This document shows positions 43,199 to 64,000 of a DNA stretch of 64,000 nt, in pieces; position 1 is the stretch's first letter; the number at the start of each line of letters is the position of its first letter. The DNA is taken from the NCBI GenBank assembly GCA_037127815.1, contig JBAXXP010000002.1, positions 41,490 through 105,489 on the forward strand. The letters run 5' to 3'. The DNA comes from a bacterium. GTDB lineage: Bacteria > Patescibacteriota > Minisyncoccia > Phycocordibacterales > CAIZLB01. Both the position numbers and the translations under genes were made by a program. Below the pieces are notes generated by a model, which had not been told where the DNA came from, searched no databases, and worked only from the letters and a program-made list of their open reading frames with translations.

Positions 43199-43504
43199 CC
43201 TTATGTGCTATGCCAATATACTAGCATGCCAGCAAGGATAAGTCAACCATTTTAGGGGTATATTTACCCTGTAAAAACACCATTCTAAGGCTAATAATAA
43301 AGGTATAATTGATATAACATAGTTGACTATGTGTCAATCTTTGTGTTATAGCTTAGAACTATATTTATAGCCCTATAATGGCAAAATGGCCAAAATAGAC
43401 ATTTTTGATTTATTCACACTTCCCTGCCCAAACCCCTTGCTTTTTTTTGCCCCATACCCATGACATGAAGCTAGCTAAAAGCTGATAAATGTGGTCTTAA
43501 ATCT

Positions 43505-43532
43505 GGAGTCAGTTACCATAGAGCCTGACCCT
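43505..43532. repeat. Degenerate REP-like palindrome
   Basis: GGAGTCAGTTACCATAGAGCCTGACCCT, with diverged centre and arms. Confidence 0.5.
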
Positions 43533-43543
43533 AAACCTACCCT

Positions 43544-43780
43544 CTATTTAGCTTTCTTAACAGGCTTCTTCTTGCTTTGCAATAAGATATCGTTTTGAGC
43601 CTGTAGTTCCCTCTTAAACGTCTCAGAAGCCTTATTTAAGGTATTCTGATCACAGTTTAGAGTTATAGGCGCAGGCTCTTTATAGGCATTCAGTAGGTAC
43701 AGCAAAAAGTACAGGTTTACCACCCCAAGCACGATAGCTGTTATAAACAACCAGAAATGTATTGATATTTTACTCATCAT
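43544..43780 (-). CDS. Small single-TM hypothetical protein
   Basis: 78 aa with an N-terminal TM helix and a Lys-rich C-terminus. Confidence 0.3.
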   Translation of the reverse strand: MMSKISIHFWLFITAIVLGVVNLYFLLYLLNAYKEPAPITLNCDQNTLNKASETFKRELQAQNDILLQSKKKPVKKAK

Positions 43781-43946
43781 AGGTTATACTGATGCCACTT
43801 CTGATACGGCTTCAGTGGGATTATCATCTCATGGTCACCCCAAAGAAGTCATAAAGATTTGTTAAAGATTCCAAGGAGACTTAATAAAGTTTCAAAAGGA
43901 ATATTTAAAAGTCCCGAATAATACATAAAATAATTAAGATAACAAT

Positions 43947-44273
43947 ATGGCAACAAAAAAAGCTGGAGGTTCAGCGAAAAACCTAACTGATTCAAATCCA
44001 CAATACCTAGGTATAAAACTATACGCAGGTGAGCGTGCTCAAACTGGATCAATCATCGTAAGACAAAGAGGAACAAAGATCATGGCTGGTAAGAACGTTG
44101 GTGTTGGTAAAGACCATACACTTTACGCTACTGCTCCTGGTGTTGTTGCATACACAGAAAAGAGAAAAGTTGATTTTGATAATAAGGTTAGCAAGAGAAA
44201 GGTTGCTAATGTTGTTGGAGAAGTTGCTAAGGTTGCAAGCAAGAAAGCTGCAACTAAGGTTGTTGCTGCTTAA
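43947..44273 (+). CDS. rpmA: 50S ribosomal protein L27 with Lys/Ala-rich C-terminal extension
   Basis: [12 protein letters not shown]...[28 protein letters not shown] is canonical L27, with a ~25-aa KA-rich tail. Confidence 0.9.
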
Positions 44274-44283
44274 TGAGTAGTTT

Positions 44284-44311
44284 GGGGTCAGACACCATGG
44301 TGCCTGACCCC
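44284..44311. repeat. REP-like palindrome (copy 3)
   Basis: GGGGTCAGACACCATGGTGCCTGACCCC, with one arm mismatch. Confidence 0.8.
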
Positions 44312-44324
44312 AAAAACAAATAAA

Positions 44325-44827: not shown

Positions 44828-45592
44828 CTACTTAACTGCCTTATCAGCACGAATCATAGAAACAGCCTCATTTACAGTTGTCATAAACTGAGCTGGGAAG
44901 ATTATTGTAGAGTTCTTTTCTACTGAAATCTCAGCCATAGTTTGAAGCGTACGTAATTGTAATGCTACAGGGTGAGCAGAGATAAGATCTGCCGCCTCAC
45001 ATAATTTAACAGCAGCCTGGAACTCTCCTTCTGCCGCAACAATCTTTGCACGTCTCTCTCTTTCAGCCTCAGCTTCTTTTGCCATAGCACGTTGCATGTT
45101 ATCAGGAAGTGTAATGTCCTTGATCTCAACAGCAGTAACTTGAATTCCCCATGGTTCTGTATGAACATCGATAACTTCTTTAATTTGAATATTAATCTGA
45201 CTAGTTTTGGATAATAGTTGATCCAATTCAAATTGACCAACAATATTTCTAACTGTAGTCTGACTAATTTGGTTTACAGCATTATAAACATCTTCAATTG
45301 CAACAACAGACTTTTGAGGGTCTAAAATATGATAGTACGCAACAGCTGCGATATCAATTGAAACGTTATCTTTTGTAATAATCTTTTGCGATGGAATACT
45401 CATTGTTATCGTTCTTAGAGAAACCTTTGTCATTTGCTCTAAAATTGGAACGAGTATAATAAGCCCAGGACCACGAACGCCGGTACACTTTCCAAGGAAA
45501 AATATGACACCTCTGTCATATTCCTTGACCACCTTCAGTGACAGAAACAACAATACAACAAGAAGGACTATCCCGAATGTTATCAATTCCAT
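44828..45592 (-). CDS. SPFH/band-7 (stomatin/prohibitin-like) membrane protein
   Basis: N-terminal TM, the SPFH core, and a C-terminal charged coiled-coil (MAKEAEAERERRAKIVAAEGE). Confidence 0.8.
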   Translation of the reverse strand: MELITFGIVLLVVLLFLSLKVVKEYDRGVIFFLGKCTGVRGPGLIILVPILEQMTKVSLRTITMSIPSQKIITKDNVSIDIAAVAYYHILDPQKSVVAIEDVYNAVNQISQTTVRNIVGQFELDQLLSKTSQINIQIKEVIDVHTEPWGIQVTAVEIKDITLPDNMQRAMAKEAEAERERRAKIVAAEGEFQAAVKLCEAADLISAHPVALQLRTLQTMAEISVEKNSTIIFPAQFMTTVNEAVSMIRADKAVK

Positions 45593-45642
45593 AAATATTA
45601 ATTAAATTTGCTAATACTGTAAGTTTAGCATACTTGTTGTTT

Positions 45643-45670
45643 GGGGTCAGGCACTATGGTGCCTGACCCC
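45643..45670. repeat. REP-like palindrome (copy 4)
   Basis: GGGGTCAGGCACTATGGTGCCTGACCCC. Confidence 0.8.
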
Positions 45671-45681
45671 AAGTATGCTTT

Positions 45682-45718: not shown

Positions 45719-46555
45719 TTAATCACCACTCAATTGCTTCACACTTGAATTACCTAAAAGTGCTGTCATTTGCCATATAGCAACTTCATTCAATTTAAGA
45801 AGCCTGTCTTTTTGAAGTAATCCTGATTTTATATATTCAGAATTTAAATTCTCAAGATTAACTAAACAAACTAATTGAGAAACATCTGCGTAATCTCTAA
45901 TATTACCTTCAAGCTTTGGATTTTTGTTTCCCCACTCTTTTGCCGTCATACCAAACAGTGCCATATTCAAGACATCAGCTTCATTAGCATAAACTAACAC
46001 AGAATCCTTACTTGATAACTTTTGGGGTAATATGATATTTTCTTTTATTGAATCAGTGTGTATTTTATAGTTTATCTTAGTTAGTAATCTTTTGACATTC
46101 CAATCTGAGGAAAGTTTTTCTTGTTCATTTGACTTAAGTCTTTGAAACTCCTTGATTAAGTAAAGTTTAAACTCTGGCGAAAGCCATGTGGCAAATTCAA
46201 AAGCAATGTCCTTGTGAGCAAAAGTACCGCCACCATACCGTCCAGGGGAGGATTTTATGCCAATTGCAGCAGTCTTTTCTATCCATCTCTTTGAAGAAAG
46301 TATAAATCCATTAGAACCCACCTGTTTTTTAATGTTATCGAATTCGATAACATTAAAATTTGGGTTATACATTTGCTCCCAAAAACCCATAAAATCAACT
46401 GTATACCCGGTTCTTAGCCAGTTTGCAATAATGATACCTGTTAATTGAGGGTCTTTAAACTTGGCCATGTCCGTCAACGATATATAATCATCACCTTTAC
46501 TAGATAAGTTAATTGTAATTTCTTGGTTCTTTATTTGTATTTTTACCATCCCCAC
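45719..46555 (-). CDS. KilA-N domain protein (phage/plasmid-associated DNA-binding family)
   Basis: N-terminal region ...GDDYISLTDMAKFKD...ANWLRTGYTVDFMGFWEQ matches the KilA-N/APSES-like pattern. The C-terminal half is unassigned. Confidence 0.45.
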   Translation of the reverse strand: MGMVKIQIKNQEITINLSSKGDDYISLTDMAKFKDPQLTGIIIANWLRTGYTVDFMGFWEQMYNPNFNVIEFDNIKKQVGSNGFILSSKRWIEKTAAIGIKSSPGRYGGGTFAHKDIAFEFATWLSPEFKLYLIKEFQRLKSNEQEKLSSDWNVKRLLTKINYKIHTDSIKENIILPQKLSSKDSVLVYANEADVLNMALFGMTAKEWGNKNPKLEGNIRDYADVSQLVCLVNLENLNSEYIKSGLLQKDRLLKLNEVAIWQMTALLGNSSVKQLSGD

Positions 46556-46791: not shown

Positions 46792-46809
46792 GGAATAAGG
46801 GCTATTTGT

Positions 46810-46828
46810 GGGGTCAGGCACCACAGTG
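46810..46828. repeat. Half REP (left arm and centre only)
   Basis: GGGGTCAGGCACCACAGTG, then divergent sequence. Confidence 0.5.
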
Positions 46829-46890: not shown

Positions 46891-48102
46891 ATGTTCAACA
46901 ACTTACCAAGCATGACTGCAGGGCTATGGGCCTTGCCAAATCAGGTTACTACGGCACTTCTTTCAATATCTGCGAAGGATCTTTTTGATATTGCCATTGT
47001 CGCAATCTGTATATACCTCGTTCTGATCTTCATTAGACAAACTCGTTCAAACTTCATTTTCAGTGCCATTGTTATACTTTTTGGGATTAACTTCATTTCT
47101 CAGGAATTTGATCTTGCACTCACTAGAACAATTTTTGCACCCCTTCTAACATTCTTTATCGCAATCTTCGTTGTGGTCTTTCAGCCTGAAATCAGAAAAT
47201 TTTTCAAATGGTTCAGTTCCGGAAGAAAGACAACCTTTGCTAAAGCGCTTTCTCTTCCTGAGGAAAATGCACAGACAATTGTTAACTCGGTTTTTGATAT
47301 GGCAAAGAAAAGGATTGGTGCAATTATTGTGCTTCCTGGACAATATCCATTAGACGATTTAATTGAAGGCGGCTTTCCACTGGATGGTCAGATTTCTAAG
47401 CCACTTATTTTAAGTATTTTTGATCCTACTTCCCCAGGACATGATGGTGCAATTTTAATTGAAGGCTCTCGAGTTAAAATGTTTGGCCTACACCTTCCTC
47501 TTGCTCGTGAGTTTGATGAGTATAGTAGAGTTGGAACAAGACACAGAGCAACGGCTGGAATCACTGAAAATACAGACGCACTTGCTATTGTTGTTTCTGA
47601 AGAGCGAGGTGAGGTTTCTGTTTCTCAAGGTGGTAAATTGAAAAAGGTTGCAACCCCTGAAGAATTGGCAAATATTATTCAGGGATTCACTAAAGTAGGA
47701 AGTAATGCATCAGAAATAGATAAGGGTCTTGCTCACTACTTCTTGGTTAAGAATAGTTACAGTAAAATATTTGCGATTGCTCTTGCTGTCATCTTCTGGT
47801 TCTTTGTTGTTTATACTGCTGGTGTTGTAAAGAGCACATATTCTGTACCTGTTGAATTTAAATATTTAAAAAGTGATATGGCAATTACTGCGGACTCATT
47901 GAGTACTATAAAAATTACAGTAACTGGAAGCAACAAAGATGTTGCGAGTTTAAAACCAGAAGATATTCACGCTATTGTTGATGCAAAAGATTTTAAGATT
48001 GGTACTAATGAGGTTACTCTAAAAGAAACTGATATTAAAATGCCGAGCTATATTCAATTGGATTCATTTACTCCAAAGAATTTGAATATTAAGACGAAGT
48101 AG
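46891..48102 (+). CDS. cdaA: Diadenylate cyclase CdaA (3 TM + DAC domain) fused to a CdaR/YbbR-like C-terminal module
   Basis: DAC motifs GAIIVLPG, PLDD, SPGHDGAILIEG, RVGTRHRATAGITE, DALAIVVSEERGEVS. Then an extra TM (IFAIALAVIFWFFVVYTAGVV) and a YbbR-like beta repeat. A TATAAA ~7 nt upstream of the ATG suggests a leaderless start; an alternative start is 46912. Confidence 0.7.
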   Translation: MFNNLPSMTAGLWALPNQVTTALLSISAKDLFDIAIVAICIYLVLIFIRQTRSNFIFSAIVILFGINFISQEFDLALTRTIFAPLLTFFIAIFVVVFQPEIRKFFKWFSSGRKTTFAKALSLPEENAQTIVNSVFDMAKKRIGAIIVLPGQYPLDDLIEGGFPLDGQISKPLILSIFDPTSPGHDGAILIEGSRVKMFGLHLPLAREFDEYSRVGTRHRATAGITENTDALAIVVSEERGEVSVSQGGKLKKVATPEELANIIQGFTKVGSNASEIDKGLAHYFLVKNSYSKIFAIALAVIFWFFVVYTAGVVKSTYSVPVEFKYLKSDMAITADSLSTIKITVTGSNKDVASLKPEDIHAIVDAKDFKIGTNEVTLKETDIKMPSYIQLDSFTPKNLNIKTK

Positions 48103-48109
48103 AGTAGTT

Positions 48110-48205
48110 GGGGTCAGGCGATTCAGCAGAATCGCCTACTGGGCCATTCAGCAGGATCGCCTACTGGGCGAGTTTGGTCTAAGATCTGAATCGTGTGCCT
48201 CACCC
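48110..48205. repeat. Composite long REP variant A
   Basis: GGGGTCAGGCGATTC-[two copies of a ~25-nt unit ATTCAGCAG(A/G)ATCGCCTACTGGGC]-...TGAATCGTGTGCCTCACCC. Confidence 0.7.
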
Positions 48206-48341
48206 TAAACTTATCCACATCGGTATTGTAAGACAGATTGACATTTCGTATAATATGGTGTAGGGTATAGATGTGTCTGTGGGCGTAAGCCTTGTTCGGC
48301 AAAAGGATTTCCTAAGTCGAAGACAGACACGATTAAAAAAG

Positions 48342-48368
48342 CACCTCGCAAGAGGTGTTTTTTTAATG
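48342..48368. terminator. Bidirectional terminator at the 3' end of the minus gene 48363..48839
   Basis: AAAAAAGCACCTC-gcaa-GAGGTGTTTTTTT. Confidence 0.55.
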
Positions 48369-48839
48369 CTTCATAATACTCCAAAAGATTGGATTTTGAC
48401 TATTCTCCACCTCAAGGATAATCACCCTGACTTCTACCGGTGTTTTTCTTCCAATAGTTGCAACTAGCGCATATTGTTTGGCTTTGACTTTTTTAGCATT
48501 CTTTTTACTATTTTGTGGCATGATTATATTTCTTTCTTCGTGAATTCCGATAGAGTTTTTAATTACAGGTACAGCCAATGGTACAAGGGTTAGTTTGTGT
48601 ATTTTCTCCGCAACTTTTCTAGGAGTTCCATCAGGTTTGTAATGGAGATGGTGAAAACCTTTTGCATTGAAAACAACATCTTTATTTAGTATAGGACAAA
48701 AAACTTTTCCTATAGACGTATAGGAAATTTTAGTTGCTGTACTTAATAGTTCACAGTGTTCAATTTGGTTTAAAATCACATCAAAAAAAATACCATAATT
48801 TACTATATTTTTCAATACCTTTTGGCAATGTGTACACAT
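48363..48839 (-). CDS. Hypothetical protein in a cassette bounded by long REP variants
   Basis: 158-aa ORF with N-terminal CxxC and no recognised domain, flanked by repeats at 48110-48205 and 48901-48980. Confidence 0.4.
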   Translation of the reverse strand: MCTHCQKVLKNIVNYGIFFDVILNQIEHCELLSTATKISYTSIGKVFCPILNKDVVFNAKGFHHLHYKPDGTPRKVAEKIHKLTLVPLAVPVIKNSIGIHEERNIIMPQNSKKNAKKVKAKQYALVATIGRKTPVEVRVIILEVENSQNPIFWSIMKH

Positions 48840-48900
48840 ATATGGCCCCTTTGATAGTATTAATATTAATGACTATACACATGCCACAAAACATCAAAGA

Positions 48901-48980
48901 GGATCGCCTACTGGGCCATTCAGCAGGATCGCCTACTGGGCCATTCTGGTCGAAGACCTGAATCATGAGTACCTAACCCC
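48901..48980. repeat. Composite long REP variant B (lacks the left GGGGTCAGGC arm)
   Basis: GGATCGCCTACTGGGCCATTCAGCAGGATCGCCTACTGGGCCATTC-TGGTCGAAGACC-TGAATCATGAGTACCTAACCCC. Confidence 0.7.
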
Positions 48981-48999
48981 AAATTAATGCAAGAAAAAT

Positions 49000-49027
49000 C
49001 CCCCGCGGCGCCATGGCGCCGCGGGGG
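49000..49027 (-). terminator. Perfect 28-bp GC palindrome terminator for the minus gene 49078..49776
   Basis: CCCCCGCGGCGCCATGGCGCCGCGGGGG, followed on the minus strand by ATTTTTCTT. Confidence 0.6.
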
Positions 49028-49077
49028 AAACTTGTTATCATTCACTTCATTTCAGATTGATTGGCTACGGCGGCACA

Positions 49078-49776
49078 TTATCGAATCGCGAAAGGTTGCC
49101 CCACAGCAATCCCCTCTGGTGATTCAATTTCAATGCTAAACCCGTAAGGATTTGTTGCGCCCCACCCACTTGCTTTCTGCACAACAAATTTATAAATTTC
49201 AGTTGGAGTTTCATTCTTCGGAAACTTTTTAGGCCCAGAATTATTAATACCAACTTTTAAACATGAATAGAAGTCATTTTGAACTGATTCTTTAATACCA
49301 CTAAAAGGATCACTGAATATCCAACTCATTACCCCGTAAGAAAACACGCCATTAGATAAAATGTACGCTGTTGGATAATCCTTGCACTTGATCTTATATT
49401 TAATCGTCACATTACTCCAATCAACGCCCGAAGTCCTGTATGTGATGACGTTACCATAAGAAGGGATATCATTCGGAATGCAAACAAACCTACTACCTGA
49501 GCAAAGTGGCCAATGGAATCCTGTTCCATTTTTCACCAGATTGGTAATCTTCCCACTACTATTCCTAACAATCCTATACTGAGGACTACTCAGATAAGGA
49601 ATAGAATTGAATTCATAAATAAAAGGGGAAATAAAAACTATCGCCACAGAAACAAAAAGATACTTTGGAATATATAAATCTTGCTGCACCTTTGTTTTCC
49701 AAAGGTAGGTATAGAGAAGCCAAAGCACAGCAAAATACACAATGCATGCGAGCATAACAAATACTGGATAGTACAT
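49078..49776 (-). CDS. Hypothetical membrane-anchored protein
   Basis: Two N-terminal TM helices and a Cys-containing soluble domain with no known motif. Lies downstream of the giant surface-protein gene on the same strand. Confidence 0.4.
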   Translation of the reverse strand: MYYPVFVMLACIVYFAVLWLLYTYLWKTKVQQDLYIPKYLFVSVAIVFISPFIYEFNSIPYLSSPQYRIVRNSSGKITNLVKNGTGFHWPLCSGSRFVCIPNDIPSYGNVITYRTSGVDWSNVTIKYKIKCKDYPTAYILSNGVFSYGVMSWIFSDPFSGIKESVQNDFYSCLKVGINNSGPKKFPKNETPTEIYKFVVQKASGWGATNPYGFSIEIESPEGIAVGQPFAIR

Positions 49777-49962
49777 GATTTTATTTAGTTGGAGTTGAAA
49801 TAGCTCAAATCACTGGCTGGGAATCAGCCGAGTCAAAGAGCAGTACATCGGACATAGTGCATCATTTATTGATGTTTTACAAGCCCGCACTCTTTGACAT
49901 TAGTTGTTTACTGATTTTAATAAAACCTAGATCATATACTAATCCAAAAAAACATGTTCACT

Positions 49963-52900
49963 TTATTTCTCTACAGTATTTGCCAAACTTGTGCACTTAG
50001 ACTCTAGAACAGCGGTTGCATTAGACTTAATAATTGCTCCGGTAGAAGATGTACCACTATTGTAATCCACACTACATGATAACGTATGTTTACCTACATT
50101 TTTTTGAACATCCTTAAACATTTTTCCACCGGTTGAGCTAGGTAGAAGACTTACACTTACCCCATCAATTGAACACGCTATTACATTAATACCTCTATAA
50201 GTTTTACCATCTGACATAACAATAGTAGGATCTATTTGACCAAGATATGCGCATTTTTTTGTTGTCTGATTTGCCCATGGTGGATTTGCTTTAAAACTCA
50301 TTCCACTCTCTATAGTTAGACCAGCACTTGTGCCAGTGCCAGTAGCACCATCTTCACCCAACTTAGGACATGCTGGGGTAATATTATCTACCCAAGTCTG
50401 GTCCCCCATTGGCTTCCCAGAGTATATTGCCCTAATACCAAATGAGACATTTGTATTATTTAGATATTGAGAAATATCTACAGTTGTACCTGTTATAATT
50501 TTGTGTACGGAGGTTAAATCAGTTTTATTTTTAACTTCAAAATCATAGCTTGTAGCATCTGGAACAGTATTCCAAGATAGGTTTGGGGATACACAATAGA
50601 ATAATGCTTGGACTTTAGGTTTATCAGAGACAGTTATAGCAAAAGATTTCCAAGCCGATGAAATACCGCTAACAGTTTCCGTAGCTTTGACTCTAAAAGT
50701 AAAATTTCCTTTTGCGTTCCATGTATTGGATGATGAAACCTCTACACCAGGTAGTACGGGCGTGCTTGTAGATACTTTAGTACCATCATTATTCCAATCA
50801 AATGTATATACGAATTTAGGCCCTGTATCAGCCTGTGCAAAAACTTTTTTGAAAGCAAAAATTATTGATGCAAGAAATGAAGTATTTTCTTTTTTTGCGA
50901 CAGGATTCAAATGAGACACAGCTGTATATGTTGTTGATAATCCGAGTGAAACAGCTGTTGGGCCGGTGACAGTTGGAGGTGAGATAGATAACGCTGCTGT
51001 GGGAGGAACAGTAATGGCGTAGGTGATTGGAGCGAAGGAGAAAGCATAGCCTGCTATCGTACTTTGGTCTCTGCTGAGCTGAGATTCGCATATATCATAG
51101 TAATCACATACGGTAGTGATAACATTAACATTGACTACACCGAAACCATTACTATGACCTCCAAAATAATCTTGATACAAAGTATACAAGTACGTAGCTT
51201 CTGACACATAACCATATGGAGTAATCCAGGAAAACATATTATATGCAAAATTGTAAGCAGCGATGTTAGTTTTTGCAAATCTACCAGGAATACACCCTAT
51301 ATTTTGTCCTGCCCAAGGATCAAAATGCTTATACCAAACAAATGTCCAATGAAACATATCACAAGTATTGATAGTATTACTTGTCTCATGTTGTACATCT
51401 GAAAAAGAAACCGTAATATTAGCACTACCAGGGCCGACTGCTGTACATTTATTTGACTCACAAGATACAACATTTGAATCATTCGACGTTAAAGTGGTAG
51501 TACCTGATTCTAAGGGAACTCCCACATTAAAACTTCCATACTCAAGATGTGAATACCACCCACTTTCAAAAGTCATCTCCCACGTTTGATAATCACTCTT
51601 ATAATAATTATTCCCATCCATCGGAGAAACTCCTCCATACGACGGATCATAAAGATACCAATATCCCTGTGATGGTAACGATGTGGCATTAATTACTTCT
51701 CCTACTGTTAGTAAACTTGTAGTTGCGTCATCTAGATTAACCCCAGATTTAATTAAGTTAAAATACTTAGATATTTTTCCACCCAAAGAAAAACTCCACG
51801 GGTCAGCAGGTGCATTATATCCAGTCCAAGATCCCCCTTGAGGCAGGTCAACACTAAAATCTGCGGTCCTTGTTGCTGCCTCCGTCTTATGAGAAAACGT
51901 AGGTGCGTAAAACGAAATGGAAAACAAAACAAACATCAACATTACTACACCACCCAAACTTCTCTTATTCCCCTTTACATTTATTTTATTTTTAATACTC
52001 ATCCACACTATCACTCCAAAAAATACTAATACAATTATTCCACCCAAGGCATACAAAATCCACGTCCAATAATCGACTTTGTAAACTGGGCATAATTTAG
52101 GATCAATATCCTTACATTTATAATTATCCTCGATCTTGTCTATCACATTACCATTGCTGTCTGTTATGGTTGTGATAGTTTTAAAGTTCACTAAATCTTT
52201 CTTAGGTGTAAACTTGCCAGCAATAGTCTCTATGATTCTACCAATTTTTCCGTTGTATTGCGTTTCTGAAATAACATTATTTTGATCATCAAATAAAACA
52301 GTATCGATATTTACAGGGTTTAATGCGTTTTGATTTGATCCATTTTGAAAACAAGTAAACAGTACTGCTTCTTGGCCGACTTTAATTGGGTACGTATTCA
52401 CGCCAAAATTATTTATTCTTGGATAATCAAAACCAGAAACAGTGAACCTTATATTAGATTCCGTTTTAACACTATAGATGCTTCTATCATTTTTCAAATT
52501 AGTATTATCAGCTTTTATATTCAAAAAATAAACCGGCGCGTCTATCTTCTTTGTCGTATATACCAAATTAACCTTACTATTTTCTGGAACTATTACCTCC
52601 TCTGTTTTTGTATCCACTTTATTTTTTTCCAATAATCCATCCCATTTATATAGAGAATATACCACTGTCATTTTTTCAGCAGTATTTGAAGGGTTAACTA
52701 ATAATATAGAAACATCTACTTTTTTACTATTGTCCTGATTAGACGCAAAAGACGACGTGTCATAAGGTTTATTATTCAGCGTGATTTTAGTTTGATCCAA
52801 ATAAATTTGTTGAGTATTATCTCCTTCAACTCTAAAACCTAGGTTTGAAGCTGTTGCATTATTTGTAAAAGATAGTCCAGATTGATTAAATCTATCGTCA

Positions 52901-55559: not shown

Positions 55560-55563
55560 TTTT

Positions 55564-55591: not shown

Positions 55592-55648
55592 AAAAAACAA
55601 TCAAAAACCCCTCCGCGGTTGCGGAAGGGGTGTAATACATTTTACAGT

Positions 55649-56128: not shown

Positions 56129-56235
56129 GTTTTATTGGGGTTGGGGTTCTATTCTCTTTCTTGAAATGAGCGGCTTTTCTATCAAAGCTCTGGCCAAACA
56201 CTACCATAGATTTTTAACCTTGTAAATATAAGAAA

Positions 56236-56262
56236 AGGGTCAGGCTATGAAAGCCTAACCCT
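56236..56262. repeat. Degenerate REP-like palindrome between the two SixA-like genes
   Basis: AGGGTCAGGCTATGAAAGCCTAACCCT. Confidence 0.5.
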
Positions 56263-56291
56263 TTTTAAAACTGCATGGTGTGCAAGGCAAT

Positions 56292-56831: not shown

Positions 56832-56888
56832 GAGCGCCTACTTCCGATTGTAATATTACATCTATTTTATTCTTTGTACAGTCAATTT

Positions 56889-56935
56889 GGGGTCAGGCGA
56901 TTCTGGTCGCAGACCTGAATCGTGTGCCTGACCCC
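56889..56935. repeat. Long REP variant C (extended-stem palindrome)
   Basis: GGGGTCAGGCGATTC-TGGTCGCAGACC-TGAATCGTGTGCCTGACCCC. Confidence 0.75.
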
Positions 56936-56940
56936 AAATA

Positions 56941-58458
56941 TTAGAAAGCTAGATGATCCTCATCCCCCATGAATATGGTTCCACTATCATCCGACATTCT
57001 TTTCATGAAGTTTGTAATTCTTTCATCAATCATAATATGACGTCTAACTAATGGAGTTTTTAGAATCATTCCATCTAAACTTCTACACCTACTTAAAGCA
57101 ACATAAGCTTGTCCATGGGTAAATGTTCCTCTACCAAAGTCTACAACAACATTACTATAAGTTTTTCCCTGTCCTTTGTGAATTGTAATTGCCCAAGCGA
57201 GTCTAATTGGAAACTGAGTAAATGTTCCAACTACGTCGGTGTCTACTGAGTCAAAATCTTTATCATAAGAAAATTTCACCATTTCCCAAGTGTACTTTGG
57301 TACCAAATAATTTTCACCGTTTTCTAATCGAACAAAAATTTCCTGCTTGTTTTCATTTATACTTGTTATGGTTCCAAGGTCACCATTTACCCATCTTGCT
57401 TCCTTGTCATTATTCAACATCATAATCCTTGCGCCTTCTTTTAATGCAAGACATTCATTGGTTGGAAAATTTCTTTCAAATGATCCAGATTTTTTACCCT
57501 TAAATATTATTTTATTTGTTTCGAGTTCATTCAGCTTCCCAAGATTAAGTGCATCAGCCATCGCATTTGTTGTGACAAGAAAAATATAATCACTATATTG
57601 CATTGGGTCAATATTATCCTCCATTGGATTTAGATATCTCTTATTTAAAAGTGTTAAATGTGAATCTTTAAGATTTCCAGACCTCACACCTTCTAGTATA
57701 TCTATGAATTTATCATCGTCCTGTCTGTAGATTTTACTTAGCTCTATAAGTTCAAAATCTGCTTTCAGAAATACTTTTGAATCAAAAAAGTATGGACTCT
57801 TATAGTACGATGAAAACATTTCTTCCTCATAGCTAGTTACAACTGGTGGAAGCTGAAACATATCCCCTACTACAATTATTTGAGTACCGCCAAATGGAGT
57901 ATTTTTATCTTTTCCATTTAATCGCATAAACGTGTCTACACAATCAAAAAGATCAGCGCGAACCATAGAAATTTCATCAATAATTATTGTATCTATGTTT
58001 TTATAAATCGCAGTGCTTCCTGTTGCTTTCTTTATGGACATAGGACTTACATTTATTCCAAATTTAAAGAACGAGTGAATAGTTTGTCCACTAATGTTTA
58101 CTGCGGAAACCCCAGTTGGTGCGAGTATGACAATTTTCTTTTTTGTTGTAGCTTTGAAATACCTAACAAGAGTTGTTTTTCCAGTTCCCGCTTTTCCAGT
58201 AAGAAAAATATTTGTTGAAGTACTTTCCATTTTGTTAAGTGCAACGAGCGTCTCATCATTCAATTCCATATTTGCAAATTCTTTGGAAAGTTTTTCCGCT
58301 AGAGCTTTATCTCCAGATCCTGGATTTTGTTTTTCCGATTTTTCAGCTGCAACTTTTGCAAGGGTTTTTTTAAAAATTTCTGTCTTAGATGGGCCAGTTT
58401 TGCTGGCTTTGGATTTCTTGTTGAATTTGGAATATGAAGAGAATGTGGAAAATGGCAT
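56941..58458 (-). CDS. Pif1/RecD-like SF1B DNA helicase
   Basis: Walker A LTGKAGTGKTTL, Walker B IIIDEISMV, GDMFQLPPV and motif V AITIHKGQGKTY. The start is set at MPFSTF because the upstream 21 codons of the track ORF are just the GC terminator hairpin at 58482-58505. A TATAAT sits 7 nt before the ATG (leaderless-like). Confidence 0.75.
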   Translation of the reverse strand: MPFSTFSSYSKFNKKSKASKTGPSKTEIFKKTLAKVAAEKSEKQNPGSGDKALAEKLSKEFANMELNDETLVALNKMESTSTNIFLTGKAGTGKTTLVRYFKATTKKKIVILAPTGVSAVNISGQTIHSFFKFGINVSPMSIKKATGSTAIYKNIDTIIIDEISMVRADLFDCVDTFMRLNGKDKNTPFGGTQIIVVGDMFQLPPVVTSYEEEMFSSYYKSPYFFDSKVFLKADFELIELSKIYRQDDDKFIDILEGVRSGNLKDSHLTLLNKRYLNPMEDNIDPMQYSDYIFLVTTNAMADALNLGKLNELETNKIIFKGKKSGSFERNFPTNECLALKEGARIMMLNNDKEARWVNGDLGTITSINENKQEIFVRLENGENYLVPKYTWEMVKFSYDKDFDSVDTDVVGTFTQFPIRLAWAITIHKGQGKTYSNVVVDFGRGTFTHGQAYVALSRCRSLDGMILKTPLVRRHIMIDERITNFMKRMSDDSGTIFMGDEDHLAF

Positions 58459-60627: not shown

Positions 60628-61029
60628 ACTAACTTGGTGTGCACTTTTTCGGAGTACAACTAAACCGTCTGTTTAAATAACGAGTACCCCATTTTAGTTG
60701 GTACGAACGTTCAGTTTCCTAAAAAGGAAGCCAACAGACTGACTTACTGCACTCATTCGAGCACAGCTTTCTAGATATTTTCATTCACCACCTAACACTT
60801 GAGTATTCTGCCAAGTTAAAAATATACAGGAAGCTGTGCTCGTACAACACTTTTTTCAAAAAACTTTCAATACAAATTATAGCAGTAAATCCCTTTTTGT
60901 CAATGGTTACCCAGTACCCTTTGTTGACAAAAACGCTCCTTTGTATTAATTTCATTACTGGTATGTATATTGACCACACGGGCCAATCTGTTCCTTACCA
61001 ATCAAACTACATCAAGCAAATATAGCATT

Positions 61030-61635
61030 ATGAAAGCATTCGGTATCGTATTCGCTACACTAACAGCAATCGTCCTTGTGATTCTTGGTATCACAGGCAT
61101 CTATTTCATTACAACCTACAACGGTCTAGTGGCAAAACAGGAGGCACTCAGTAAAAGCTGGGGACAAGTGGAGGTGGTGTGTCAGCGAAGAGCTGATCTC
61201 ATCCCCAATCTCGTTGCTACAGTCAAGGGTTACGCAGCGCATGAAAAGGGCGTCTTTGAAAATGTTGCTGAAGCCCGTGCAAAAGCGGGTTCAATCAGAT
61301 TGGACGCCGGTGAAATGGCCAACAATCCTGAGCAGCTTCAGAAATTCTTAGCCGCTCAAAAAGAGCTCTCTGGAGCACTGACAAAACTGCTCGCAGTGAG
61401 TGAAAACTATCCGACTCTCAAGGCGGATCAAGGTTTCCTTACACTGCAGGGGCAGATCGAAGGTTCCGAGAATCGCATTGCGGTTGAACGTGGAAATGCG
61501 CAGAAAGCAACCAATGAATACAATGTACTCGTCAAAGGGTTCTTCTCTTCAATGGTTGCCGGAAGCAAATTCCAGCCAGTCAAATATTTTGAAGCTGATG
61601 CTGGTGCCAAGGTGGCACCCAAGGTCAACTTCTGA
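61030..61635 (+). CDS. lemA: LemA family membrane protein
   Basis: N-terminal TM, then YNGLVAKQEALSKSWGQVEVVCQRRADLIPNLVATVKGYAAHE, the LemA signature. Confidence 0.8.
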   Translation: MKAFGIVFATLTAIVLVILGITGIYFITTYNGLVAKQEALSKSWGQVEVVCQRRADLIPNLVATVKGYAAHEKGVFENVAEARAKAGSIRLDAGEMANNPEQLQKFLAAQKELSGALTKLLAVSENYPTLKADQGFLTLQGQIEGSENRIAVERGNAQKATNEYNVLVKGFFSSMVAGSKFQPVKYFEADAGAKVAPKVNF

Positions 61636-61700
61636 TACCAACTCGGAAGCAAGCAGAATTCTAAATCGAAAATAAAAATTCAAAATAGAAAGGTTAGCTG

Positions 61701-62552
61701 ATGAAAATAATTTATAAGATTTTTCTAACCCTGTTATTCTCCACTTTTGTTAGTCTGGCTGAGGAATACCCCGCGCTAGTCTCTCACGTGAATGATTACA
61801 GCGGTGTACTGAAGCCGGAGGAAAAAGAAAAGCTGGAAGCAAAGCTTGTAGCTTTTGAAAAAGAAACCGGCAATCAGATCGTCATACTCACTGTCAAAAG
61901 TTTGAATGGCGACACAAAGGAAGGCTATGCAAATAAAGTCTTCAAGTTTTGGAAGCTTGGCGAAAAAAATCGCAATAACGGAGTTCTACTCCTGAATGCG
62001 ACCGATGAAAAGAAAGCGCGTATTGAAGTCGGCTACGGTCTCGAAGGAGCCCTACCTGATGCAACATGCCTGAGTATTTTCAGAAACGATATGTCTCCAA
62101 ACTTGAAGAAGCAGGACTTCTTTACAGCCTATGATTTAGCAACAACAAACATCATTAGTGCCACCAAGGGTGAATATAAATCTGACATTGAGTCAGCCGA
62201 GGATTCTAAAAAAGGTGGAATGCTTATGACATGTGTATTCTTTGCGGTCATTTTGTTTTTGATTACAGCTTTTCTCGGAGAATTCCATTGGTTACTTGGT
62301 GGAATTGTTGGAGCTCTTGGAGCTGTTTTGATCGCATACTTTTTAGGTACGTGGATTGTAGCACTTGGTATCATTGGATTTCTAGCAGGATCTGCATCAA
62401 ATGCAATTCTAACAGGAATGTCCAATGGTTCGTCTGGTGGATACTACGGTGGAGGCGGAGGTTCCAGCTTTGGAGACTCAAGTGGTAGTGATTCATCCTT
62501 CAGTGGTGGAGGAGGAGACTCCGGTGGTGGAGGTGGTGGTGGAGACTATTAA
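61701..62552 (+). CDS. TPM-domain (TLP18.3/YgcG-like) phosphatase-fold protein with C-terminal TM and Gly-rich tail
   Basis: Signal peptide, TPM domain (LVSHVNDYSGVLKPEEKEKLEAKL...NQIVILTVKSL...NGVLLLNATDEKKARIEVGYGLEG), TM helices, and a GGGGSS/GGGDSGGGGGGG tail. LemA-TPM is a classic gene pair. Confidence 0.75.
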   Translation: MKIIYKIFLTLLFSTFVSLAEEYPALVSHVNDYSGVLKPEEKEKLEAKLVAFEKETGNQIVILTVKSLNGDTKEGYANKVFKFWKLGEKNRNNGVLLLNATDEKKARIEVGYGLEGALPDATCLSIFRNDMSPNLKKQDFFTAYDLATTNIISATKGEYKSDIESAEDSKKGGMLMTCVFFAVILFLITAFLGEFHWLLGGIVGALGAVLIAYFLGTWIVALGIIGFLAGSASNAILTGMSNGSSGGYYGGGGGSSFGDSSGSDSSFSGGGGDSGGGGGGGDY

Positions 62553-62739
62553 TCCCCTTCTTTCTCATCATGTACAATGTGACAAACGTCCCCGGCAGCG
62601 CGAGCTGCCGGGGATTTTACTATTGAACATTTAGGCTAGACACCACATTATGCTACTACAAAAAAACCACCTCTCAGGACAATGCCTGAGTCAGGTGGTC
62701 TATCTTCAGTTATGCGTTACTGAAACCGGACATTAAGTC

Positions 62740-63207
62740 TTAGCCGTAAGGCTGATGATTACCAACCCTGATGCAAATGAGTACGTAGTCATCCTCAGGC
62801 ATCGCTGTGCGTTCCTCAAAAAAGAAAAATCGGATTAGACGTTCATCTTCCTTATCTTCAAATTGGTTATGAGCAAAACCGTAGGAATGGAATACAAACC
62901 ACTTGTCTTCATCCTCATCATTGCAAATGAGCTTTCTTTTCTCACCTCGCTCACGCAGCAAGCCAACGATAAGACCTGCTTCAACCCGAGATGCCAGGCG
63001 ATAACCTGAATCCCTAAGAGTTTCCACGATTTCATCATGAGTGATTGGAATTTCTTCCAAGCCGAGCGCCTCGAATGGATCTACAACAACCTTTGAATCC
63101 CCTTCTTGTTCCTTGTCAGTGACGTAAAGAAGATTAATTACCTCAACCTTCCTGCCCAAACGTGATGCAATCATCATGTTAAATCTGCCATCTTTAACCA
63201 GTTTCAT
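62740..63207 (-). CDS. Hypothetical acidic protein
   Basis: 155-aa ORF, no motif. Confidence 0.3.
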   Translation of the reverse strand: MKLVKDGRFNMMIASRLGRKVEVINLLYVTDKEQEGDSKVVVDPFEALGLEEIPITHDEIVETLRDSGYRLASRVEAGLIVGLLRERGEKRKLICNDEDEDKWFVFHSYGFAHNQFEDKEDERLIRFFFFEERTAMPEDDYVLICIRVGNHQPYG

Positions 63208-63668
63208 GTCTATGTGTTTTCTATTGTTTAGCTATAATTTCACTTCGCTCACCGGAGCGAATTTTGTTCTTAACCATTTTTAGACTAACACACAATATAT
63301 CCTTGGTCAAATTATCTAAGTATGAAATATGATCCAACAGCGCAGGCAATGACGAAGAATATCATTATTATGTCAGCTCCAGATCTATTCTTTACTATAC
63401 CTTTATTTATTAGAAAGTTTGCTAAAGCTGAATCTGTTTGTCCTTGATTGTTGTTTGGATACATTTAATTTTGATTAAAATTACTATGTATCTATTATAT
63501 CACAATTAATTTTGTCGAATAGATAGAAATCAAGGACACTAATTAATAGAAACATTACCGAAGAGTAGTACTTGTATGTATATTACCTACAGCTATTGAC
63601 AGTATTATAATATTGTGTGAATATATCACTGGATTGAATTTTTTCCTTGTTCTCCACAACAATACTCA

Positions 63669-64000
63669 ATGGCTAATTCAAAGCCAGAACAAGGTTCTCA
63701 TCACCTAGAAAATATGATAATTAGAACACTGAAACCCGGAACTGTTTGTCGTGATAGCGCTACCCAATTGGAAGGGACAATCACCCATTGGCTCTGTGAC
63801 ATGGGCCGTCGAATTGACTACATCTTCCAACCGAAAGGTCTCAATGATGAAGGTGAACCTCTGTCTTACATCAAAATGGAGGTTGAACGTTTGGTAGTCA
63901 CTGACGATATGTTCGAGGAAGTCGATGTGCCCATCGAAATTCTCGGCACACTGGTCACCGACAAGCCTAGTGGTTTTACCGGCATGGCTGTTGGGTTCAT
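63669..64000 (+). CDS. Hypothetical protein, N-terminal fragment (3' end beyond the window)
   Basis: Open frame from the ATG at 63669 to the window end (110 codons without a stop), GC-richer. Not in the ORF track because it is unterminated. Confidence 0.3.
   Translation, partial: MANSKPEQGSHHLENMIIRTLKPGTVCRDSATQLEGTITHWLCDMGRRIDYIFQPKGLNDEGEPLSYIKMEVERLVVTDDMFEEVDVPIEILGTLVTDKPSGFTGMAVGF

Follow-up and report, generated by a model that had tools for sequence, protein, structure and literature searches.

REP and REPIN sequences and the RAYT transposases that accompany them have been described in Proteobacteria, including E. coli TnpA-REP (structure 4ER8) and the REPINs of Pseudomonas fluorescens (PMC3116915, PMC3337134). 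In these systems, a short HUH/Y1 gene with intact HUH and Tyr residues is tightly flanked by cognate palindromic repeats, which are scattered between genes and form ssDNA hairpins; the gene is syntenic in close relatives, and where the gene is missing so is the repeat. Related elements include the IS200/IS605 family (e.g., TnpA of IS608 and ISDra2), which uses ssDNA-hairpin chemistry at distinct left and right subterminal hairpins, and MITEs, short non-autonomous elements with two inverted arms around a variable spacer that are mobilised in trans by DDE enzymes. Genomic islands and HGT tracts of Patescibacteria (PMC12455944) are compositionally deviant and carry ORFans as well as genes with best relatives in other, partly Patescibacterial, lineages.

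We analysed a 64,000-nucleotide stretch (the window) from a member of the freshwater, ultra-small Patescibacteria (Paceibacteria/Parcubacteria-type), in which a zone of apparent gene turnover extends from ~40 kb. As judged from sequence, we consider it likely that the interval from 43.5 to 64 kb is a mosaic, in which anchor genes alternate with separate insertions, rather than a single mobile island, and that its dense repeats belong to a REP-RAYT system. On this reading, the locus would be an ordinary plasticity zone that houses a REP-RAYT system, for which the literature searched held no report in the phylum Patescibacteria. The observations presented here comprise the anatomy, synteny, composition and repeat statistics of the region, the motifs of the RAYT protein and the flanking arms in eight loci.

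Architecture and base composition

A sharp change in gene organization occurs at ~40.2 kb, where a one-strand housekeeping block gives way to short genes in either orientation. Of the 37 genes in 1-40.2 kb, 35 lie on the + strand, with two strand switches and 10% intergenic DNA; the corresponding values for 40.2-64 kb are 9 of 26 genes, 13 switches and 23%. Repeats and GC-rich hairpins are denser beyond the switch. In 43.5-64 kb there are 11 GC-rich palindromes whose stems reach at least 10 bp, versus four in 1-43.5 kb (P = 0.001 relative to length and 0.012 relative to intergenic space), which agrees with the initial annotation that GC-clamp palindromic terminators appear past ~43.5 kb. Its description of the first 40 kb as almost entirely housekeeping fits the co-directional block, except for another GC-rich islet, at 9.8-12.6 kb (GC3 0.39-0.46), and two full REPs.

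The proposed compositional shift, by contrast, was mostly not borne out, while the architecture, the repeats and most gene calls were, including YkuD, KilA-N, Amidase_3, Y1_Tnp, PIF1, LemA and TPM by Pfam. Sliding GC and tetranucleotide profiles showed native-like composition over 43.5-58 kb (GC 0.33-0.38, versus 0.348 +/- 0.019 in the first 40 kb, i.e., within ~1.5 sd), with strong deviation confined to 58-65 kb (GC 0.42-0.43, tetranucleotide z 5-6.5). Coding GC, said to rise patchily, is raised in two SixA-like paralogs (GC3 0.36-0.41) and in a patch with LemA and TPM genes (GC3 0.35-0.50), but the "helicase block" around Pif1 has native composition (GC3 0.247).

It is possible, though we hold this only tentatively, that the zone is also the replication terminus, with replichores meeting at ~40-65 kb and the usual terminus-proximal plasticity, a reading that would complement the mosaic. 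Near 42 kb, GC skew and gene orientation come together: the cumulative G-C skew reaches its maximum at 42,313 and then declines steadily to 73 kb, in a profile that is confounded with coding strand and spans 73 kb of the 215-kb contig, and the + strand bias before 40 kb is followed, beyond 64.3 kb, by TPR, 264-aa, Ddl and PKD genes on the - strand. The skew of one related locus (L023) switches at the same place, just after AsnB; in more distant relatives, however, CdaA lies within uniform skew. A search for a dif-like site yielded no match to E. coli or B. subtilis dif or to a general 28-nt consensus reportedly due to Kono et al.

The RAYT-like gene and its palindromic repeats

A RAYT-like Y1 (HUH) transposase of 198 aa is encoded at 54963..55559 (+) (Pfam Y1_Tnp at 1e-15). 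Its HUH motif and Tyr122 are invariant, and among solved structures E. coli TnpA-REP (4ER8) matches it best. The protein scores 66.8 bits against NCBIfam REP_Tyr_transpos, below the curated RAYT cut-off of 80 bits, versus 21.7 bits against IS200. The gene is syntenic in two relatives (L074 and L004), and no second copy was found in the ~220 kb examined. Two REPs tightly bracket it: a consensus copy (54864..54897) located 66 nt upstream of the start codon and predicted to form a hairpin as ssDNA (-18.6 kcal/mol, z = -7.4), and a copy (55561..55594) that begins 2 nt past the stop codon.

The REP unit measures 34 nt and is perfectly palindromic (TTTGGGGTCAGGCACC-RT-GGTGCCTGACCCCAAA). The REPs of the initial annotation are thus a real palindrome family, as GGGGTCAGGCACCATGGTGCCTGACCCC occurs in seven copies at <=3 mismatches in the window versus 0 expected; the 13-nt arm has 29 matches where 2.8 would be expected, and 25 of these fall between genes. 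In 43.2-58.5 kb, 10 of 16 intergenic spacers contain arms, versus 4 of 36 earlier (Fisher P = 2.8e-4), and full copies by themselves (n = 7) are weakly enriched (P = 0.04 relative to length and 0.11 relative to intergenic space); both values are to be read knowing that REPs need intergenic space, of which the zone has more, and that copies near the RAYT gene are not independent events. The reported jump in REP density from ~43.5 kb holds for 43.2-57 kb, with no REPs past 57 kb and with full copies before 40 kb at 10524..10557, by the GC-rich islet, and at 27482..27515. The latter lies between a class II (Asp/Lys/Asn-type) aminoacyl-tRNA synthetase gene (26051-27457) and a 248-aa gene (27539-28285; ScpA by eye only). 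Across 150 kb of sibling contigs, assumed to originate from the same organism, there are 19 palindromes, of which 17 are perfect; REPs are therefore dispersed and not an island marker.

Within the zone, full copies are found 8 nt past the L27 stop codon (44281..44314) and between the Band7 and KilA-N genes (45640..45672). A degenerate copy (43498..43535), whose fold is lost, lies in a ~100-bp insertion relative to L023, and a single arm, i.e., a half copy (46805..46828), precedes CdaA. Longer variants have 25-75 nt between the arms. Several copies coincide with the ends of two insertions, A and B: a composite REP (48108..48209; two arms around a ~75-nt internal tandem repeat) and a full REP (54459..54492) mark the left and right junctions of insertion A, and the copy just past the RAYT stop codon and a nested variant (56886..56938) mark those of insertion B. 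The nested variant carries its arms around a 25-nt inner hairpin (fold -23 kcal/mol, z = -8.8) and abuts the Pif1 stop codon.

The palindromes might alternatively be only immobile transcription terminators or mRNA stabilisers, unlinked to the Y1 gene, with a density that tracks the ends of transcription units. We judge this improbable. All full copies are intergenic, often right after stop codons, the zone has 13 strand switches versus two in the first block, and GC-rich hairpins with T-runs, unrelated to the REP palindrome, are likewise enriched. Ordinary terminators, however, differ from one another, whereas the same 28-34-nt sequence recurs seven times here and a further 19 times at sibling loci, with most copies identical, and A's rather than T's follow the stem on either strand. 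Furthermore, relatives that have no RAYT (L003, L005, L022 and L023) have no REP, and RAYT homologues elsewhere are bracketed, like the gene here, by co-varying arms with the same core: at eight homologue loci across Patescibacteria (47-82% identity), the arms are inverted and share GGGTCAG. The REP palindrome thus appears to be, in effect, two such inverted arms joined head to head.

A REP-RAYT system is accordingly the reading that we pursue, and the locus shares with its Proteobacterial counterparts the short gene with intact HUH and Tyr, the closest structure, the tight flanking by cognate palindromes, the dispersed intergenic repeats with ssDNA hairpin folds, and the syntenic gene position with joint absence of gene and repeat. 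It differs in its Patescibacterial host, in a protein that falls below the NCBIfam cut-off, in a perfect 34-nt palindrome built from two 13-16-nt arms, each non-palindromic, on either side of a 2-nt spacer, in single arms that flank distant homologues like terminal inverted repeats, and in a conserved GGGTCAG element where a GTAG-type 5' tetranucleotide is not apparent. With IS200/IS605, it shares the Y1 HUH fold family (Pfam Y1_Tnp) and, presumably, the ssDNA-hairpin chemistry, but scores against these elements (IS200 as above; ISDra2 TnpA E 0.06) are far lower than against RAYT references, no second copy of the gene appears in the ~220 kb examined, and one and the same arm, inverted, forms both ends. 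Like MITEs, the repeats are short and non-autonomous, with two inverted arms, a variable spacer (2, 25 or ~75 nt) and presumed mobilisation in trans; unlike MITEs, they show no evident target-site duplications, and the presumed enzyme is an HUH Y1 transposase.

If the analogy to E. coli TnpA-REP and IS200/IS605 TnpA holds, the REP may fold as a hairpin in ssDNA that the resident transposase binds, cuts and copies in trans. Copies cluster in the intergenic spacers around the RAYT gene, which are also insertion junctions, and REPs may have played a causal part in the insertions.

Conserved gene order and variable pieces

With CdaA as anchor, 22 related loci were found, and synteny was tested over +/-10 kb around it, such that conservation of 1-36 kb and beyond 58.5 kb refers to few loci only. 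Genus-level relatives keep the order AsnB, lysozyme-like gene, L27, Band7, CdaA, 115-aa protein, (RAYT) and Pif1; this order is common to L003, L005, L022, L023 and L074 and is interleaved with variable pieces, so that the interval is not a single island. Of the 18.5 kb from 40 to 58.5 kb, only ~6 kb are collinear at genus level. In the same slots, relatives carry other cargo (CAP, PG-binding, sortilin-like, Schlafen helicase, DUF3800 and SocA). The layout seen here is fixed at >=99.7% identity in seven other contigs.

The backbone segment at 42468..44273, with genes on both strands, is collinear with L023 (76-80% nucleotide identity) and includes a 208-aa lysozyme-like secreted protein (42572-43198, -), ribosomal protein L27 (43947-44273, +; Pfam Ribosomal_L27) and, among the backbone genes, a 78-aa ORF. 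The designation of the 208-aa protein as an Rpf-like transglycosylase found no supporting match in Pfam and PHROG searches; ES...GIAQV motifs were noted in it by eye only. Further backbone genes encode a Band7/SPFH protein (44828..45592, -; Pfam Band_7; 95% amino-acid identity to L003), the diadenylate cyclase CdaA (46891..48102, +; Pfam DAC, CdaA_N and YbbR), a 115-aa protein with no assigned function (54498..54845, -; same position and 51-55% identity in L003, L005 and L074) and a Pif1-family helicase (56941..58458, -; Pfam PIF1). Hence, housekeeping genes for L27 and the c-di-AMP synthase CdaA sit inside a region labelled as accessory. Pif1, 70-83% identical and adjacent to CdaA in L003, L005, L022, L023 and L074, is not a mobile-element marker, because it is a conserved neighbour of CdaA.

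This vertically inherited backbone would alternate with at least five independent lineage-specific pieces. The first (40.2-42.5 kb; slot 40172..42467) includes the polarity switch, a 110-aa ORF (40258-40590, -), an L,D-transpeptidase predicted to be Tat-exported (41210-41881, +; Pfam YkuD; twin-arginine motif SRRSFLAG) and a small ORF; L023 holds other genes in this slot, matching only in two stretches of 47-58 bp (40.19-40.25 and 40.94-40.99 kb). The second is a solitary, phage-type KilA-N gene (45719..46555, -; Pfam KilA-N; phrog_2657 at 3e-52) that is missing from the corresponding position in L003 and L023; its product is 51-53% identical over its full length to proteins of Staphylococcus phage EW and of Streptococcus satellite phages, has 165 relatives in viral contigs and matches the candidate defence family PDC-S22 of PADLOC (1.6e-120). 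The third, insertion A (48103..54458; ~6.4 kb, native-like GC), is a surface and cell-wall module that comprises a 158-aa ORF, a 232-aa membrane protein, a REP remnant (48900-48983), a 30-nt GC palindrome (48999-49028), a 1190-aa signal-peptide protein (49963-53535, -; GC3 0.245) and an Amidase_3 protein (53597-54451, +; Pfam); it is missing between CdaA and the 115-aa gene or Pif1 in L003, L005, L022, L023 and L074.

The fourth, insertion B (55595..56885, -; ~1.3 kb, raised GC), is missing in L074 and carries the two SixA-like paralogs (55649-56128 and 56292-56831, both -) with a REP-like hairpin (56233-56265) between them. The paralogs are 36% identical, with invariant RH and H residues; PDB profile matches to the PGAM family, an AF2 model (pLDDT 94.9) and Foldseek matches to Alr0221, PGAM5 and SixA uphold the call of a histidine-phosphatase fold. 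The fifth would be a 5.7-kb GC-rich patch with LemA-TPM and ORFans.

A single integrated mobile element (genomic island, prophage remnant or ICE) spanning ~43.5-64+ kb is very improbable and largely refuted. The phage-type KilA-N gene and the Y1 transposase, the many genes without known function, the raised repeat density and the GC-rich right end would all fit such an element; however, L27, Band7, CdaA, the 115-aa gene, RAYT and Pif1 are collinear in relatives and interleaved with variable pieces, and most of the span is compositionally native. No integrase or recombinase was found in the region, nor phage structural genes in a PHROG search. The search for an integration site beyond the window revealed no att-like repeat and no adjacent tRNA; the nearest downstream, tRNA-Ala at ~68.6 kb, lies ~4 kb past the patch behind native genes. 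Alignment of relatives, suggested as a means to define island borders, showed variable slots on a collinear backbone and no such borders. What remains of the accessory-region interpretation is much lineage-specific content, one phage-type gene and one patch that is apparently xenologous.

The GC-rich patch

The patch (58548..64,214, extending past the window end at 64000) holds seven genes, encoding 110-aa and 107-aa proteins, a 355/371-aa ORFan, LemA (61030-61635), TPM (61701-62552), and 155-aa and 181-aa proteins. It is essentially REP-free, since the repeats stop at 57 kb. The compositional rise at LemA-TPM was confirmed: GC3 exceeds a background of ~0.24 throughout the patch, which is bounded by Pif1 and a TPR gene (GC3 0.229). 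Its LemA is 58-60% identical to matches in higher-GC contigs, and only 37-39% identical to the LemA encoded next to CdaA in relatives. A chimera from assembly or binning, suggested by the MAG origin of the contig and the abrupt GC shifts at 58.5 and 64.3 kb, has next to no probability, as independent assemblies (JGI, ENA, NCBI and Logan samples) span both junctions at >=99.7% identity.

The patch bears marks suggestive of horizontal acquisition and appears to be the sole clearly xenologous piece. Neither repeats nor a recombinase were found that would indicate how it was acquired. It resembles the Patescibacterial islands and HGT tracts (PMC12455944) as a small, compositionally deviant tract with ORFans and with best relatives in other, partly Patescibacterial, lineages; it differs in measuring only 5.7 kb, with neither integrase nor flanking repeats, and the rest of the flagged region differs in showing gene-by-gene turnover on a conserved backbone. 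The patch is missing downstream of Pif1 in L005 and L023 and is fixed in at least eight assemblies; as far as relative ages can be inferred, it is probably the most recent acquisition among the pieces.

Gene organization and base composition

The initial annotation had described 43.5-64 kb as an accessory region with a compositional shift, mobile-element markers and dense repeats, an observation that our analyses partly confirmed and an interpretation that they partly supported. We read the region as an ordinary zone of plasticity set on a conserved backbone, with one small foreign patch, one phage-type gene and a system of palindromic repeats (REPs) and a Y1 (HUH) transposase-like gene (RAYT). 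Gene architecture differs between the two parts of the window, with 35 of 37 genes on the + strand, two strand switches and 10% intergenic DNA in 1-40.2 kb, and 9 of 26 genes on the + strand, 13 strand switches and 23% intergenic DNA in 40.2-64 kb. The first 40 kb, which had been regarded as almost entirely housekeeping, encode S9, GrpE, DnaK, an ABC-F ATPase, HisRS, ProRS, two class II (Asp/Lys/Asn-type) aminoacyl-tRNA synthetases, a family-4 glycosyltransferase (MraY-type), FtsW, MurG, an M23 peptidase and AsnB; inside this block lies a second small GC-rich islet at 9842-12591 (GC 0.38-0.49, GC3 0.39-0.46). The islet holds two alpha/beta-hydrolase-like genes and two genes of unknown function; a full REP occupies 10524-10557, and GC-rich hairpins occur at 12508 and at 12563.

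Sliding GC and tetranucleotide analyses placed a sharp deviation at 58-65 kb alone (GC 0.42-0.43, tetranucleotide z 5-6.5), with moderate peaks at 10-14 kb and over the gene for a 1190-aa protein. GC over 43.5-58 kb was 0.33-0.38, near the first-40-kb mean (0.348 +/- 0.019 in 3-kb windows) and the GC of about 35% for the host as represented by the window; the proposed compositional shift thus holds for 58-65 kb and not for 43.5-58 kb. At the level of individual genes, where native GC3 is 0.21-0.29, raised values were confined to 9.8-12.5 kb, a 110-aa ORF at 40258, two paralogs at 55.6-56.8 kb and seven genes at 58,548-64,214; the helicase block, for which a rise in coding GC had been reported, is native in composition (Pif1 GC3 0.247). 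GC-rich palindromic terminators had also been said to appear in the flagged region, and GC-rich hairpins other than REPs number 11 there versus 4 before it (e.g., 44763-44797, 48999-49028, 58480-58507 and 62589-62614). Their sequences are mutually unrelated, with frequent A/T runs, and they look like ordinary terminators, the higher density of which in the flagged region is expected where short transcription units abound. Across the window, tRNA was the sole Rfam match.

Conserved backbone and variable slots

We compared the 10 kb on either side of CdaA homologues with the window by tblastn and blastn, and added one locus (L074) through its RAYT homologue. The loci with a related CdaA come from freshwater MAGs labelled Parcubacteria, Paceibacteria, Nomurabacteria or, loosely, "Saccharibacteria", which places the host of the window in the Patescibacteria. 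The backbone comprises M23 and AsnB (36.76-40.13 kb), a lysozyme-like gene and L27 (42.47-43.42 and 43.55-44.21 kb; common to L023), Band7 (44.84-45.63 kb; common to L003), CdaA (46.87-48.09 kb; all relatives), a 115-aa gene with RAYT (54.51-55.56 kb; L003, L004 and L074) and Pif1 (56.92-58.27 kb; all relatives). Pif1 follows CdaA directly in L022 and L023, the 115-aa gene lies between them in L003 and L005, and L074 has CdaA, a small protein, REP, RAYT, REP and Pif1 in this order within 1.1 kb; measured against L074, the window bears two distinct insertions, one at 48.08-54.58 kb and the other at 55.56-56.92 kb. Three further slots (the gap between AsnB and the lysozyme-like gene, the gap from L27/Band7 to CdaA, and the stretch downstream of Pif1) carry other cargo in relatives, including CAP, PG-binding, sortilin-like, Schlafen-type helicase, DUF3800, SocA, DUF2207 and ABC transporter genes. 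The interleaving of backbone genes with differing cargo refutes a single island and shows gene-by-gene turnover on a conserved scaffold.

A single integrative island, prophage or ICE over 43.5-64 kb is not supported by other lines of evidence either. The claimed mobile and phage gene content stands to the extent of one phage-type KilA-N gene and RAYT, but no integrase or recombinase was found in Pfam scans of all 40-64 kb ORFs or among the gene calls to 73 kb, and no phage structural or conjugation genes were found, KilA-N being the sole PHROGs match. Pif1, taken as a mobile-element marker, proved to be a backbone gene of native GC3 that adjoins CdaA in L022 and L023. Alignment with relatives did reveal variable pieces, but no single pair of island borders, as the block is not present or absent as a unit and its inner backbone genes are collinear in L003, L005, L022, L023 and L074. 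An integration site past the window end was not borne out: the only tRNA gene in the window is tRNA-His at 22.4 kb, and the next, tRNA-Ala at about 68.6 kb, is separated from the GC-rich patch by native genes. Neither a second copy of the 3' end of tRNA-Ala nor any other tRNA-derived repeat was found, and border repeats were likewise absent. An assembly artefact is ruled out by seven other contigs from different samples that have the same layout at >=99.7% identity, which also indicates that the mosaic is fixed in the population; the eight assemblies examined were monomorphic.

Small variable zones and tracts of horizontal transfer have already been documented in Patescibacteria (PMC12455944), and a variable zone such as this one, which has no mobility machinery of its own, changes little in that picture. 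What does change is the map: foreign composition is limited to 5.7 kb, Pif1, CdaA and L27 belong to the backbone, and the REPs form part of a genuine REP-RAYT system.

Two further observations concern the Band7 neighborhood. Upstream of Band7, L003 carries a defence-like cluster (1116-5055) of a Schlafen-group helicase, a MazG-like gene, DUF3800 and a SocA/Panacea antitoxin, and the matching position in the window has different genes. The Band7/SPFH protein itself (44828-45592) is 95% identical to that of L003, compared with 81-83% for the flanking CdaA and Pif1, which could reflect strong constraint or recent exchange of the gene.

Cargo genes

The insertion at 48103-54458 encodes a 158-aa protein, a 232-aa membrane protein, a 1190-aa signal-peptide protein without Pfam domain and an Amidase_3 protein, all of native GC3. 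Permissive-threshold Pfam searches of the 1190-aa protein, of small ORFs and of the lysozyme-like gene at 42572 yielded nothing usable, leaving the "Rpf-like" label of the latter without a match. The insertion at 55595-56885 holds the two paralogs (55649-56128 and 56292-56831; 36% mutual identity), members of a small family with 36 cluster representatives. R20-H21 and H126 (RHG-type and second catalytic His) are invariant, a PGAM-family PDB profile matched (3eoz at 1.3e-6), and an AF2 model (pLDDT 94.9) gave 3f2i (Alr0221), PGAM5 and SixA 2rfl as best Foldseek hits, with TM of about 0.55. The paralogs are thus predicted members of the histidine phosphatase superfamily, SixA-like at fold level; the earlier designation as SixA paralogs holds in this sense, whereas the NCBIfam sixA model, with an E of only 0.04, gives too weak a match to support SixA orthology.

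The KilA-N protein (45719-46555, - strand, native GC) is a full-length phrog_2657 protein with 165 relatives in IMG/VR contigs, and it matches the PADLOC candidate single-gene defence family PDC-S22 over its full length (E 1.6e-120). Its identity to Staphylococcus phage EW ORF014 and to proteins of Streptococcus satellite phages is 51-53%; for a Patescibacterial gene, a level of about 52% against Firmicutes phages and satellite phages is unusually high. KilA-N is a lone phage-type gene. PHROGs and PADLOC searches with the ORFs of unknown function gave nothing except KilA-N (PDC-S22) and, for Pif1, matches to helicases in general. Just past the housekeeping block, a YkuD L,D-transpeptidase (41210-41881) has a twin-arginine motif (TSRRSFLAG), which implies probable Tat export in an ultra-small bacterium.

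A GC-rich patch as candidate for horizontal acquisition

The patch consists of seven contiguous genes (58,548-64,214; GC3 0.35-0.50, tetranucleotide z 5-6.5), i.e., one ORFan (371 aa), four small unknown proteins and a LemA-TPM pair, and has sharp borders, with Pif1 (GC3 0.247) on one side and a TPR gene (GC3 0.229) on the other. Apart from its own cluster, no homologue of the 371-aa protein turned up among 5.8 billion protein clusters or in viral contigs, and no homologues of patch genes occur downstream of Pif1 in L005 and L023. The best relatives of LemA are 58-60% identical and adjoin TPM in contigs with GC of 0.43 and 0.53. An ancestral origin of LemA-TPM, suggested by the presence of the pair beside CdaA in distant relatives, was rejected, as the LemA proteins beside CdaA in these family-level relatives are just 37-39% identical to the patch LemA versus 58-60% for the non-neighboring matches. 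The patch is also essentially REP-free, REP arms (halves of the palindrome) being present in one of six spacers at 58.5-64 kb, as a weak match; no direct or inverted repeats of >=9 nt were found flanking it. Composition, the ORFan, the relationships of LemA and the REP-free state make the patch the best candidate for recent horizontal acquisition in the region. Beyond the window, which was extended through the overlapping locus L025 (window coordinate = 73,208 - x), native composition resumes at 64.2 kb with - strand genes for a 1056-aa TPR protein and a 264-aa protein, tRNA-Ala (about 68.6 kb), Ddl and a PKD protein.

In the two Paceibacterota-like contigs with these closest LemA relatives, LemA-TPM is again markedly GC-richer than its surroundings (L064, 276-1715, 0.50 versus 0.43; L067, 3491-4944, about 0.60 versus 0.53). 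It seems to be a two-gene cassette that either undergoes repeated transfer or is kept GC-rich.

Polarity switch

Cumulative G-C skew reaches its maximum at 42.3 kb and falls from there to 73 kb, and genes lie on the + strand before 40 kb and on the - strand beyond 64.3 kb, so that orientation converges on the zone from both sides. In L023 (at about 4,000), the skew switches directly after AsnB, as it does in the window at about 40,200-42,300. That the zone is the replication terminus is a tentative reading, which we consider somewhat improbable, with skew covering a third of the contig; if true, this location could explain the concentration of turnover here. A general dif consensus had no match at <=3 mismatches, nor had the E. 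coli and B. subtilis dif sequences at <=8 substitutions, and Patescibacterial dif may differ from each of these.

The REP palindrome

The repeat GGGGTCAGGCACCATGGTGCCTGACCCC occurs in seven copies in the window at <=3 mismatches (starts 10527, 27485, 44284, 45643, 54462, 54867 and 55564), versus none in shuffles. Extended by its flanks, the repeat becomes a 34-nt perfect palindrome, TTTGGGGTCAGGCACC-RT-GGTGCCTGACCCCAAA, which as ssDNA has a predicted fold of -18.6 kcal/mol (z = -7.4). For the 13-nt arm we obtained 29 matches (<=3 mismatches) versus 2.8 expected, 25 of them intergenic. The jump in REP density noted initially was upheld: arms occupy 10 of 16 spacers at 43.2-58.5 kb versus 4 of 36 earlier (Fisher P = 2.8e-4), although enrichment is marginal with the seven full copies alone (P = 0.04 by length, 0.11 by intergenic space). 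The window also holds at least five variants, among them arms round a 25-nt insert (56886-56938) and round an insert of about 75 nt (48108-48209). The 43-nt direct repeats at 48167 and 56896 were considered as att sites of a single 8.7-kb insertion and rejected: they are REP variants, with the same arms and inner hairpins, and comparison with L074 also reveals two distinct insertions, on either side of a conserved RAYT segment. Three copies of a divergent arm, GTACCT[AT]ACCCC, lie at 8443, 41924 and 48968 and may be left over from an older REP subfamily.

A metagenome scan for the core identified 16 low-GC stretches in large contigs of the same lake series, with 19 palindromes in 150 kb, 17 of them perfect. 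If these contigs belong to the same population, as we infer, the REP would be dispersed well beyond the window. An identical 24-28-nt core (GGGGTCAGGCACC-NN-GGTGCCTGACCCC) was also observed in unrelated contigs from metagenomes, the GC of which is about 47-68% and mostly 60-68% (L035-L038, L045-L048, L051, L053, L054, L057-L059 and L063); several of these share the extra flank AAACCTGNN...NNCAGGTTT, and some have nearby GGGGTCAGACCCC/GGGGTCTGACCCC palindromes. No RAYT match was found in these high-GC loci, which span just 1-8 kb. They could represent a REP family of another phylum or a coincidence among GC-rich hairpins, the latter being conceivable because only 11 bases are independent; a true shared family would mean a recognition motif conserved across phyla.

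A REP-RAYT system in Patescibacteria

The biology of REP-RAYT systems has been worked out in Proteobacteria. The RAYT gene of the window (54963-55559) encodes a 198-aa protein that matches Pfam Y1_Tnp at 1.2e-15, and H60-F-H62 (the HUH motif) and Tyr122 are invariant across nine homologues. It scores 66.8 bits against NCBIfam REP_Tyr_transpos versus 21.7 bits against transpos_IS200; the former lies below the curated equivalog cut-off of 80 bits for REP-associated tyrosine transposases, which indicates a divergent clade. The only solved-structure relative is E. coli TnpA-REP (4ER8), which the nine-homologue profile matched at 2e-6, versus 0.06 for ISDra2 TnpA; on these scores the protein resembles RAYTs more than it does the TnpA of IS200/IS605. 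REPs flank the gene on both sides, at 54864-54897 (ending 66 nt before the ATG) and 55561-55594 (starting 2 nt past the stop), and no second copy of the gene was found in the 73 kb of window and extension or in 150 kb of sibling loci. It occupies the CdaA/Pif1 gap in both the window and L074 (82% identity) and adjoins CdaA in L004 (64%), and by this synteny it is, in all probability, vertically inherited in place. The initial call of REPs with a RAYT was thus sound, given Y1_Tnp, bracketing REPs and dispersed copies. The system matches the published definition of REP/REPIN-RAYT systems (PMC3337134) in its intact Y1 HUH protein, flanking cognate REPs and multi-copy, extragenic, dispersed repeats, but differs from it in the divergent protein score and an unusual arm structure; by analogy, RAYT would mobilize the REPs. 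It is a known kind of system, for which our literature searches found no report linking RAYTs or REPINs to Patescibacteria.

RAYT homologues number more than 600 at E <= 1e-10, and those with names are from Parcubacteria, Kaiserbacteria or the "Patescibacteria group". Inverted arms with one common core bracket RAYT in every homologous locus that has both flanks, and the GGGTCAG core is kept over about 50% protein divergence (8 of 8 loci examined). In L074 the arms form a full palindrome identical to that of the window; six other loci have single arms, inverted, on either side of the RAYT homologue, i.e., GGGGTCAGACACC (L073), GGGGTCAGACTCC (L072), CAGGGTCAGGTACGG (L069), AAGGGTCAGGTACC (L075), AAGGGTCAGGAG (L077) and GGTGTCAGG (L076). 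In L004, the contig of which stops 185 bp past the gene, a single side carries an arm-like GGGGTCAGGC; the opposite side has no arm within the 180 nt that were read. No REP-like repeat was found in the RAYT-less relatives L003, L005, L022 and L023. The single inverted arms at homologues indicate that the window palindrome corresponds to two arms joined head to head.

REPs cluster round RAYT and occupy nearly every junction between backbone and cargo, a placement that points to a possible role of REP hairpins as local hot spots of recombination or insertion, which would drive cassette turnover in a streamlined genome. Taken as a whole, a large Patescibacterial RAYT-like clade whose arms have fused here into a proliferating palindrome, with hairpins as possible hot spots and a core shared across phyla, is a speculative picture to which we give rather less than even weight. 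The conserved GGGTCAG arms and abundant homologues nevertheless offer a tractable case for studying hairpin recognition by HUH transposases, and for asking if repeats of this kind influence the turnover of genes in extremely reduced genomes. Upstream of the RAYT homologue in L072 (9,780-10,000), we also observed a tandem duplication of about 134 bp, in which the duplicated stretch includes the first ~25 codons of the gene, then the left arm (GGGGTCAGACTCC); it may be the footprint of an arm-associated rearrangement.
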